Origin: Escherichia phage McMelon
Sequence record: OR896838.1
DNA: 44,740 bases
Strand: one strand, 5' to 3'
The first letter of the stretch is position 1. Each line of letters opens with the position of its first letter. A program made the position numbers and the translations under genes. Under the pieces are notes generated by a model. That model was not told the DNA's origin. It ran no database searches and was given only the letters and a program-made list of their open reading frames with translations. Shown one piece after another: positions 35,331-36,611 of the stretch.

Positions 35331-35361
35331 CTCTAAAAAGAGGCCCGCAGATCAGCGGGCC
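35331..35361 (-). terminator. rho-independent terminator
   Basis: GGCCCGC-agatca-GCGGGCC hairpin followed on the minus strand by CTTTTTAGAG. Confidence 0.6.
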
Positions 35362-35369
35362 GGAATATA

Positions 35370-35879
35370 TTAATCTTCCAGTTCGAAATAGGTTTCGACG
35401 ATTTCTTTTAAATCTTTGTGGAAGTCTTCGACGTCGTCGTCTTCCAGCTTGGCGATTGATTTGATCTCGAACGCTTCCAGCAGGTCGTCAAATTCGTCGT
35501 TAGCATCGTCGTCATCGCCACCGGCGATAATCGCGGCGTACTGCTTGATCTCGTCGCGCATCTCTGCCAGCGGATCGGCATCTTTCTTCCCTTTGCCTTT
35601 CGCCGGAGCTTTTTTACCCTTCGCCGGTTTTTCGTCTTCGGCTTCTTCATCGTCGTCATCTTCTACGACTTCTTTTTTGGCCTTACCTTTAGCCGGGGAT
35701 TTTTTAGATTTAGCCGGTTTTTCGTCATCGTCGTCATCTTCGACAACTTCTTTTTTGGCCTTAGACGGCTTCTTATCTTCCTGTTTACCAACGGCAGCGC
35801 CAACGGTTTCATAATGCTTTGCAATGGTTTCCAGTGCTACTACGCCGCGAGTGATCAGGTTTACGATTTGCTCAAACAT
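35370..35879 (-). CDS. highly charged repeat protein (alternating poly-Lys and poly-Asp/Glu blocks)
   Basis: 170 aa from ATG with GGAGA RBS; internal tandem repeats KKEVVEDDDDxEKPAKxKKxPAKGK; the track ORF extends to 36059 but that region looks like a 5' leader. Confidence 0.5.
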   Translation of the reverse strand: MFEQIVNLITRGVVALETIAKHYETVGAAVGKQEDKKPSKAKKEVVEDDDDDEKPAKSKKSPAKGKAKKEVVEDDDDEEAEDEKPAKGKKAPAKGKGKKDADPLAEMRDEIKQYAAIIAGGDDDDANDEFDDLLEAFEIKSIAKLEDDDVEDFHKDLKEIVETYFELED

Positions 35880-36075
35880 GGTATATCTCCGATTGGTTAA
35901 GTTTAGGTGTCGGCAGTTAACTTCGTCGGTGGCCTTAACATATTGCCAGGTTACGCGTTCTCCCGTTCGGGTAGTGGACCTGGTTATATACTCACGGTTG
36001 GGAATCCTGACACTTCGATCCGGCCCCTGCGTTGCCCCTCTCCAGTTTGCGTCCTGCATCCTGTCGACGGAGTGA

Positions 36076-36105
36076 ATGATAGATTGGTTGCAGGATGGGT
36101 GTCAA
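36076..36105 (-). promoter_or_regulatory. strong sigma70-like leftward promoter (TTGACA-18-TATCAT)
   Basis: Minus-strand perfect -35 TTGACA, 18-nt spacer containing CTGCAACCAATC, -10 TATCAT; heads the leftward operon. Confidence 0.55.
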
Positions 36106-36114
36106 CAACTAATT

Positions 36115-36150
36115 TCAAAAAAAAAGCGCCGAGGCAAAATGCGACGGCGC
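36115..36150 (-). terminator. terminator-like hairpin between divergent promoters
   Basis: Minus strand AGCGCCG-tcgcattttgcct-CGGCGCT followed by T9. Confidence 0.45.
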
Positions 36151-36221
36151 TAACCAATAAGAGACAATGAGACGAGAATTATTATTACACGCGTGCGCGC
36201 CCGTTTCAATATCCAAAGGAT

Positions 36222-36250
36222 TTGACACCGTGCAGTTTTGGGTGTAGTTT
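36222..36250 (+). promoter_or_regulatory. sigma70-like rightward promoter (TTGACA-17-TAGTTT)
   Basis: Perfect -35 TTGACA at 36222..36227, 17-nt spacer, TAGTTT; 32 nt upstream of the HTH gene. Confidence 0.5.
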
Positions 36251-36281: not shown

Positions 36282-36611
36282 ATGAATGTAAACGACGCAA
36301 TCGAAATGTTAACGAAGACTGTTTGCAGTGAGACAAGCCGGTCGTGGGCATACACCGATGCCGTGGGGGCTGTGTTATTTGAAATCGAACGACTGCGGCT
36401 TACCGAAAAAGAATTGCGCGCCAGGCTGGAACTACTCAACGGTACAGCAGCAAGCAAGCTGCAAAAACACAATGAAGAAATGGAAGAATACAAAAAGCAG
36501 GTTATCCGTTTGCGCGCCGAGGGTAAATCATGGGCGATGATTGCCGAGTTGACCGGGATTAATCAGAGCACAGTGCGCTCCTGGGTACGCAATAATAAAA
36601 CTTCTAAGTAA
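36282..36611 (+). CDS. HTH DNA-binding protein (putative transcriptional regulator)
   Basis: 109 aa; helical N-terminus; C-terminal helix-turn-helix SWAMIAELTGINQSTVRSWV; first gene of rightward operon. Confidence 0.6.
   Translation: MNVNDAIEMLTKTVCSETSRSWAYTDAVGAVLFEIERLRLTEKELRARLELLNGTAASKLQKHNEEMEEYKKQVIRLRAEGKSWAMIAELTGINQSTVRSWVRNNKTSK

Follow-up and report, generated by a model that had tools for sequence, protein, structure and literature searches.

The stretch analysed here, referred to as the window, is the whole 44,740 nt of sequence record OR896838.1 from Escherichia phage McMelon, and the locus in question is a minus-strand gene encoding a 169 amino acid (aa) protein together with the 180 nt in front of it, which form the leader RNA described below. 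The region is of the Dhillonvirus type (HK578/SO-1/SSL-2009a-like virulent Escherichia coli siphophages) and the surrounding 2 kb is 94–97.5% identical to many such genomes. Downstream of the gene, on the same strand, follow two small open reading frames (ORFs), a DUF2800 PD-(D/E)XK nuclease and, farther on, DNA polymerase I, and divergently from it the plus strand carries a helix-turn-helix (HTH) gene and a primase-helicase. The strong leftward promoter proposed in a first-pass annotation, made from the letters of the window only, was confirmed (positions of all features in Table 1); it matches the consensus at 11 of 12 positions and both hexamers are kept in relatives, the -35 hexamer being invariant in 19 of them and the -10 hexamer reading TATCAT, TATTAT or TAATAT. 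From the promoter spacing, transcription is expected to start at about 36069–36068.

The same annotation had placed the start of the gene at the ATG at 35879 and left two options for the preceding 180 nt, found to be open in frame and to lack a Shine-Dalgarno (SD) sequence: a long structured 5' leader or a leaderless N-terminal extension. The proposed start holds, with GGAG located 7 nt upstream and an ORF of 169 aa instead of the 170 aa first given, and the frame does reach back to an ATG at 36059, resulting in 229 aa with no SD at that ATG. When 23 distinct upstream sequences of relatives were aligned and scored for coding, the 60-codon extension was open in 15, broken by a 1- or 2-nt indel in four (L005, L009, L012 and L077) and missing for ~150 nt in another four (L004, L008, L010 and L016), while the SD and the MFEQ start were kept in all 23. 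The profile of the protein family to which the gene belongs, phrog_3127, also aligns from residue 1 of the short form. Since the stretch is lost or frame-broken in 8 of the 23 relatives while the start at 35879 persists, the 229-aa reading is wrong, and the N-terminal extension falls with it; that most genomes still have an open frame is due solely to the near-invariance of the leader sequence. That the true product would be the 229-aa protein, leaderless or translated from a weak SD, is exceedingly improbable in spite of the long form being annotated in a few database entries, as the substitutions in this stretch obey base-pairing and not codon logic and the lineages differ there by 1 nt in length. 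The comparison of the relatives thus shows the protein to start at 35879 and the upstream 180 nt to be non-coding.

The other option, a structured leader, was borne out, and the comparison of genomes shows the stretch to be a conserved multi-helix RNA belonging to a covarying family present in several phage lineages. It consists of eight helical segments (P1, P1b and P2–P6, with P4 in two parts) and the single-stranded runs between the helices, GGAGAGG, AACCGUGA, CACU, AGAACGC and CGACGAAG, are invariant. A covariance model (R1) was built from an RNAalifold structure checked by hand, with P1 left outside the model and assessed separately; in the fetched loci 31 copies (28 distinct) were found and chance pattern matches were rejected. 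In the seven modelled helices standard pairs occupy 97.5% of the cells, compared with 27–46% when the partners are slid by 1–3 columns, and both sides change in 12 of the 33 modelled pairs, P5 and P6 being fully covarying. The R1 alignment is fitted to the model; the same changes can be seen in a model-free MAFFT alignment, where compensatory changes include CCAGG/CCTGG, CATGA/TCATG, CATAAC/GTTATG, CCCGAACGGG, CTCGAAAGAG and GCCGCAAGGC. Inside Dhillonvirus the few variable positions covary as well (CCAGG/CCTGG, CCCGG/CCGGG and CCTGG/CCAGG). The closing helix P1 is formed in 28 of the 28 distinct sequences, as 13 different duplexes. Among the pairs there is one G-U in 28/28 sequences, a U-G in 20/28 and another U-G in 27/28, which on the opposite strand would give C-A mismatches; such pairs are possible only on the transcribed strand, and the element is therefore an RNA of that strand. 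Folding of the single sequence, the check that the first-pass annotation had suggested, gave a minimum free energy no better than that of shuffled sequences (z = +1.26), so the fold is invisible from the window alone and genome comparison was needed. Further covarying helices or pseudoknots were sought in J4/5 and J5/3, the junctions between P4 and P5 and between P5 and P3, and only clade-level correlations were seen.

A BLAST search with the leader revealed 171 phage records, with one place each in nearly every record. Outside Dhillonvirus the leader is found in Drexlerviridae of the Tempevirinae (Warwickvirus tunus and swan01, Changchunvirus PHB17, Motto and KMI8), in Murrayvirus Lumpael and in 38–44-kb phages of Enterobacter, Klebsiella, Serratia, Salmonella and E. 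coli (Arya, IME279, KA2-1, MQ-4, sortkaff, Alux-21, HeidiAbel_Bas97, PT1 and BUCT618), and the carriers include phages of model collections, such as BASEL isolates, SECphi18 and HK578. It is missing from about a quarter of the Dhillonvirus records, and comparison of these genomes shows it to be dispensable in nature. Near-identical Dhillonvirus or Drexlerviridae sequence was also met under the labels Acinetobacter phage NJ01, Pseudomonas phage Motto and Campylobacter phage A144; these host labels are probably wrong, or the isolates contaminants. In Rfam 15 nothing was matched on the minus strand within 35906..36072 at E<=10, nor by five other versions of the leader at E<=1, and ARAGORN found no tRNA or tmRNA in it. 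No copy was present in 5,426 E. coli genomes or in the PLSDB plasmids. Short-pattern scans of IMG/VR gave ~20 extra loci (L043–L065), which apart from L058 were chance matches unconfirmed by the covariance model, and scans of metagenomes and GTDB added only a handful of phage-like contigs. Neither the leader RNA nor a function of the protein was described in the literature searched on Dhillonvirus, Drexlerviridae, structured RNA and HK578-type genomes, a coverage that is incomplete, so that an earlier description may exist elsewhere. The leader is an RNA of a known kind, a structured 5'-leader RNA, for which no matching described family was found, and it is unusual in being a promoter-linked module with interchangeable cargo in virulent phages.

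When analysing the surroundings of the leader in the different phages, the same order was found in all contexts examined: P1 starts 6–9 nt past the -10 hexamer of a sigma-70-like promoter, i.e. at about +1, and the leader is followed by an A/C-rich linker of 20–45 nt, a good SD and a start codon. The leader points the same way as the flanking genes in every lineage examined and occupies a gap of 200–260 nt, often with a terminator ahead of the promoter and a second one behind the cargo gene; in one case (L042) the unit closes at a bidirectional terminator opposite a convergent gene of 1207 aa. In the relatives that lack the element, the 5' strand of P1 (GUCGAC) persists and pairs with a new short partner; the resulting mini-hairpin occupies the corresponding 5' position. 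The SD region is predicted to be 0.5–0.8 unpaired in 13 representatives, a thermodynamic prediction alone and as such weak, with no consistent SD sequestration. Ten cargo genes were scanned, nine of which fall in nine different PHROGs, all of unknown function, and one remained unmatched; the window gene adds phrog_3127. One cargo gene is lipoprotein-like and another, outside the PHROG scan, looks like a membrane protein. As the genes are unrelated and share promoter and RNA, the constant part is promoter plus RNA and the cargo varies. The comparison across lineages shows the leader RNA to be a portable module: several families of virulent siphophages of enterobacteria carry it behind promoters and ahead of unrelated genes. 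In Arya/IME279-like phages (L042 2439..3289, also L037 and L066) it precedes a protein of 104–106 aa whose signal sequence (MKRITAIAITLAAVLGCSY...) is of the lipoprotein type and which may be a lipoprotein for superinfection exclusion.

The protein of the window matches phrog_3127 (E 4e-52) with residues 1–169 on profile positions 1–178 of 178. In the databases 105 homologues of 115–179 aa were found, nearly all beginning with MFEQ, and with tblastn 269 phage records were seen to hold a member of the family, always annotated as hypothetical, with Jerseyvirus, Kagunavirus, St162, phiEap-2 and eiAU among them; the '13.88 kDa late protein' of MB78 is the sole named relative. In phages of the Dhillon-, Jersey- and Kagunavirus types its gene comes first in the replication module, and the members of the family (Dhillonvirus, Jerseyvirus, Kagunavirus, eiAU and St162) share with the window protein both this place and a three-part architecture. 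The window protein differs from them by its expanded linker with two repeats and is a long-linker variant of this already catalogued family.

An AlphaFold model made from an alignment of 40 sequences gives a helix at residues 2–27, disorder at about 28–100 and three helices (103–120, 124–136 and 150–165) with a predicted local distance difference test score (pLDDT) of 87–95. In a second run with the shortest natural homologue the N-terminal helix was not confidently docked on the bundle (pLDDT ~55). The first-pass annotation had described the protein as being mostly alternating Lys-rich and acidic repeats. Two copies of a repeat are indeed present in the DNA, though not over most of the protein; the repeated block covers residues ~31–99, about 40% of the whole, and is charge-neutral (22 K+R versus 21 D+E). 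Across the 105 homologues both ends of the protein hardly change, the linker varies from ~15 to ~80 aa through gain and loss of Lys-rich and acidic blocks, and the repeats are virtually absent in the natural proteins P0097, P0083 and P0090 of 115–124 aa. The emphasis on the repeats was thus misplaced: no part of the protein is less conserved than the linker that they build, and natural variants dispense with it. Frame-shifted or split versions of the protein, broken inside or after the repeats, were noted in P0098, P0104, P0105 and phage welsh (L003 3371..4010), and the repeats therefore seem to invite slippage or errors in assembly or sequencing. The C-terminal domain has 27 D+E in 70 residues (39%) and a net charge of -21; the whole protein also has a net charge of -21, with a pI of 4.5.

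A profile of the C-terminal domain found more distant homologues, 50–60% identical and 123 aa long, that have the same helix (recognisable in P0111 and P0113), followed by a linker that is short and free of repeats and by the same acidic domain, which carries the motif G-D-x-D-x-x-A-D-x-F-D-D-L-L. Comparison within the family hence shows the selected, conserved parts to be the helix and the acidic bundle, the repeats being a drifting spacer. P0111 is the first gene of an operon continuing with a Tad2-like gene, a DUF2800 nuclease, an Enc34-type single-stranded DNA-binding protein (SSB) and PolA, divergent from an HTH gene and primase-helicase. At a distant syntenic locus (L087 5421..5717) the gene right behind the homologue matches Pfam Tad2-like (anti-Thoeris), which suggests that small genes heading the replication operon can be anti-defence genes.

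Database searches with the protein, by domain, defence model, PDB sequence and fold, gave no lead to its function. In Pfam there were only compositional sub-threshold matches (BUD22 and DUF6669) and no SSB domain, the best E-value against the PADLOC defence models was 0.27, a sequence-profile search of the PDB gave nothing below E 0.09 and a BFVD search returned family members only. The label 'prohead core protein', carried by the relative in phage UDS3lw, was unsupported by any of the searches. The parallel drawn in the first-pass annotation to the tail of SSB found no support either; compared with an SSB and its acidic tail the window protein is all-helical, its acidic part is a folded three-helix bundle and not a disordered tail, and it lacks an oligonucleotide-binding (OB) fold.

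Table 1. Positions of the leader RNA, the gene and the associated features in the window
Feature	Position	Strand	Remarks
Sigma-70-type early promoter	36076..36105	-	TTGACA (36105..36100), 18-nt spacer, TATCAT (36081..36076); 11/12 consensus matches
Conserved structured leader RNA, ~165 nt	35906..36072	-	Covariance model R1, 179 bits, E 2e-42; single copy in the window
P1	36068..36061 with 35916..35909	-	Closing helix
P2 hairpin, GGA loop	36058..36048	-	Small hairpin
P1b	36047..36045 with 35921..35919	-	Helix
P3	36038..36034 with 35933..35928	-	Encloses P4 and P5
P4	36032..35994	-	Long irregular hairpin
P5	35983..35946	-	Encloses P6
P6 hairpin	35974..35960	-	Often GNRA loop
Upstream in-frame ATG (229-aa reading)	36057..36059	-	Within the RNA element: 2-nt P1/P2 joint and first base of P2
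A/C-rich unstructured linker (ACCTAAACTTAACCAATC) and SD	35880..35905	-	Between leader RNA and coding sequence
SD GGAG	35890..35887	-	7 nt ahead of the ATG at 35879
Coding sequence, 169-aa protein	35370..35879	-	True start ATG at 35879; relatives annotate the same start
N-terminal amphipathic helix, residues 2-27 (FEQIVNLITRGVVALETIAKHYETVG)	35799..35876	-	AlphaFold; nearly invariant in the family
Disordered charge-block linker, residues 31-99	35583..35789	-	pLDDT <50; PAKxKKAPAKGK blocks alternate with EVVEDDDDE blocks
Two linker DNA repeats, 78-90-nt unit	35576-35662 and 35666-35752	-	74% identical over 87 nt, 93% over 43 nt
Acidic C-terminal domain, residues 100-169	35373..35582	-	Three-helix bundle, motif GGDDDDAxDxFxDLL
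Intrinsic terminator	35335..35361	-	GGCCCGC-loop-GCGGGCC (hairpin 35361..35342), then TCTTTTT; directly after the gene

A feature that the first-pass annotation did not mention is the strong terminator right behind the gene, beyond which lie ~12 kb of essential replication genes. Among the loci of relatives that carry the hairpin its stem is invariant and its loop variable (three loop sequences), and it is found in relatives both with and without the leader RNA; in L003, L006 and L011 an extra gene of ~37 aa (welsh_32 type) follows the stop codon of the target gene and replaces the hairpin.

Taken together the features are best explained by a self-contained early expression cassette on the minus strand, in which a strong sigma-70 promoter would be followed by the ~165-nt leader RNA, the A/C-rich linker with its SD, the 169-aa protein and a terminator that is presumably leaky into the replication genes. 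The leader RNA would begin at, or 1–2 nt from, the 5' end of the transcript and act in cis on it. Its closing helix would shield the 5' end from RNase E and RppH; 5' ends can be protected from decay dependent on these two enzymes, and since a mini-hairpin is kept by the relatives that lack the element, a 5'-terminal helix seems to be the minimal requirement. The invariant junction nucleotides would be a probable binding site for a small ligand or a conserved factor of the host, through which the stability or the translation of the following gene is set, and we infer that the large conserved core in this manner adds a second, specific cis function. The protein, in turn, would be a modular early protein, probably abundant, at the entrance of the replication operon. 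Its N-terminal helix may serve self-association or oligomerisation, anchoring or the binding of a partner, the Lys/acid repeat stretch would be a flexible spacer whose length drifts by repeat slippage, and the acidic three-helix bundle most likely decoys a basic DNA-binding protein of host or phage when replication starts, possible targets being, for instance, nucleases of the host, components of restriction or defence systems, or nucleoid proteins. The nucleic-acid mimic or chaperone-like early protein of the first-pass annotation is a possible interpretation. The explanation as a whole, i.e. cassette, cis-acting leader and acidic decoy protein, is given a probability of about 0.55.

Several points weigh against this explanation. 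We infer the transcript ends, and with them the place of P1 at +1, from the promoter spacing. For 5' protection a simple hairpin is enough, and this role alone leaves the near-invariance of the junctions across families unexplained. A conserved expression platform or a helix sequestering the SD was not found in the leader. Its single copy, its own promoter and its unrelated neighbours would be no less expected of a stand-alone RNA gene. For the protein, the decoy idea draws entirely on charge, timing and synteny, and no homology or fold match to a characterised DNA mimic or chaperone was obtained. When compared with the acidic DNA mimics and decoys T7 Ocr, Gp5.9, ArdA, T4 Arn and Ugi, the window protein resembles these in being small, early, extremely acidic and probably oligomeric through its helix; it differs in having no sequence or fold similarity to them and in its neutral Lys/acid linker, which is not known to have a counterpart there.

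As regards 5' protection, the leader would share with ompA-type 5' stabiliser hairpins of bacterial and phage mRNAs a helix at, or within a few nt of, the inferred 5' end, and so would the mini-hairpin of the relatives without the element. Such stabilisers are simple hairpins of free sequence, and the leader differs from them by its multi-helix fold of ~165 nt with invariant junctions common to several phage families.

For the protein a role as accessory factor of the phage replisome or recombination machinery (for instance a loader, a chaperone or a bridge for primase-helicase, SSB or the DUF2800 nuclease) and not as a decoy of host proteins is a realistic though not a favoured possibility, graded nearly as likely as the decoy role. 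The first position in the replication module is conserved across distant phages and both the N- and the C-terminal parts are under strong purifying selection, as would be expected of such a factor; on the other hand the protein resembles none of the known loaders or replisome factors and the gene is insulated by its own terminator.

The main alternative to a cis-acting leader, somewhat less probable again, is that the element works in trans as a non-coding RNA standing on its own, for instance as an anti-defence RNA or as a decoy or sponge of a host protein. It would be cleaved from the 5' end of the mRNA in the A/C-rich linker, the downstream gene merely sharing its promoter. Besides the one BLAST place in nearly every record, the promoter that is always its own and the unrelated neighbours in different genera, this is favoured by junctions that are near-invariant across phage families of different Enterobacteriaceae, suggesting a conserved host target; the GGA in the P2 loop presumably resembles CsrA sites. 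Against it, the RNA never has a terminator of its own and always lies 20–45 nt ahead of an SD, and about a quarter of the Dhillonviruses dispense with it.

The leader could also work as a riboswitch-like sensor that responds to a global signal, for instance an ion, a nucleotide pool or a second messenger, and tunes accessory or early genes to the state of the host. It does share with riboswitch aptamers and orphan candidates a P1-closed multi-helix junction, conserved unpaired nucleotides, covarying stems and the position in a 5' untranslated region. A classical riboswitch is unlikely, however, because no expression platform (neither terminator/antiterminator nor an alternative structure sequestering the SD) and no coherent set of downstream genes with a shared function were found, and no riboswitch family in Rfam was matched.

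It is more doubtful still that the Lys-rich repeats make the protein a histone-H1-like DNA-binding or condensate-forming nucleoid protein. The PAKxKKAPAKGK blocks resemble H1/AlgP-type tails, and blocky polyampholytes can coacervate. Such a role is unlikely because the linker is dispensable, the repeats being nearly absent in the full-length relatives P0097, P0083 and P0090 and the linker short and non-repetitive in the distant homologues, and the net charge of the whole protein is strongly negative.

Very little speaks for the leader being a processive antiterminator of the type of HK022 put or Bacillus EAR, with RNA polymerase reading through the terminator at 35361..35335 into the replication operon: it is likewise structured, promoter-proximal and upstream of an operon interrupted by a strong terminator, but the idea is weakened because relatives without the element retain the same terminator and some cassettes must terminate (read-through of the L042-type cassette into the convergent gene would be harmful), and the leader differs in size and fold from put, a two-stem-loop structure of ~70 nt.

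Another known arrangement to which the locus can be compared is that of the phage morons, as in several phages the unit consists of terminator, promoter, RNA, one or more variable small genes and terminator. Morons are defined in temperate phages and are not known to share a leader RNA; the leader cassette differs in that a conserved RNA is constant and the cargo variable, and in being carried by virulent phages.

Some further features were noted on the side of the divergent operon. A likely rightward promoter for the HTH/primase-helicase operon was spotted by eye at 36222..36250 on the plus strand (TTGACA-17-TAGTTT), with a weak -10 box to which the promoter scan was therefore silent. The divergent gene of 109 aa (36282..36611, plus strand) is labelled 'Gam nuclease inhibitor', 'transposase' or 'resolvase' in relatives and matches only small HTH domains (HTH_23, HTH_28 and sigma-70 region 4); these functional names seem to have been carried over between annotations. 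Upstream of the main promoter, at 36118..36209 on the minus strand, there is a unit resembling a small RNA (sRNA) gene, with a promoter TTGAAA-17-AATAAT with extended TG (36209..36181), a 23-nt unstructured stretch and then a GC hairpin with U9 (about 36174..36118; fold z = -4.0). The sequence of the unit is invariant in 18 relatives, with two compensatory stem changes in L016, and it could be a ~57-nt Hfq-type sRNA, or else serve the main promoter as UP element or insulating terminator.

For annotation, the start at 35879 is a correction, as several database entries, like the 229-aa reading, translate non-coding RNA. The protein ranks among the most widely conserved unknowns heading the replication module of Dhillon-, Jersey- and Kagunaviruses, and with the helix and the bundle as its core the targets for mutation are clear. 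The presence of the leader in phages of model collections makes it genetically testable at once, and natural presence/absence variants exist at the same locus. More tentatively, and with clearly less confidence than the cassette itself, the leader might be the first representative of a new class of regulatory RNAs in phages, a portable promoter-plus-RNA module ahead of accessory or early genes whose core binds a signal of the host state or a host protein; the partner may be a nucleotide messenger, or RNA polymerase, the ribosome/S1, CsrA or RNase E. If true, the expression of diverse cargo would be coupled to the condition of the infected cell, or a host factor would be titrated. An RNA that travels with its promoter and drives unrelated cargo would, if this is correct, be a new layer of gene control in virulent phages using the host RNA polymerase, as well as a ready-made expression part.

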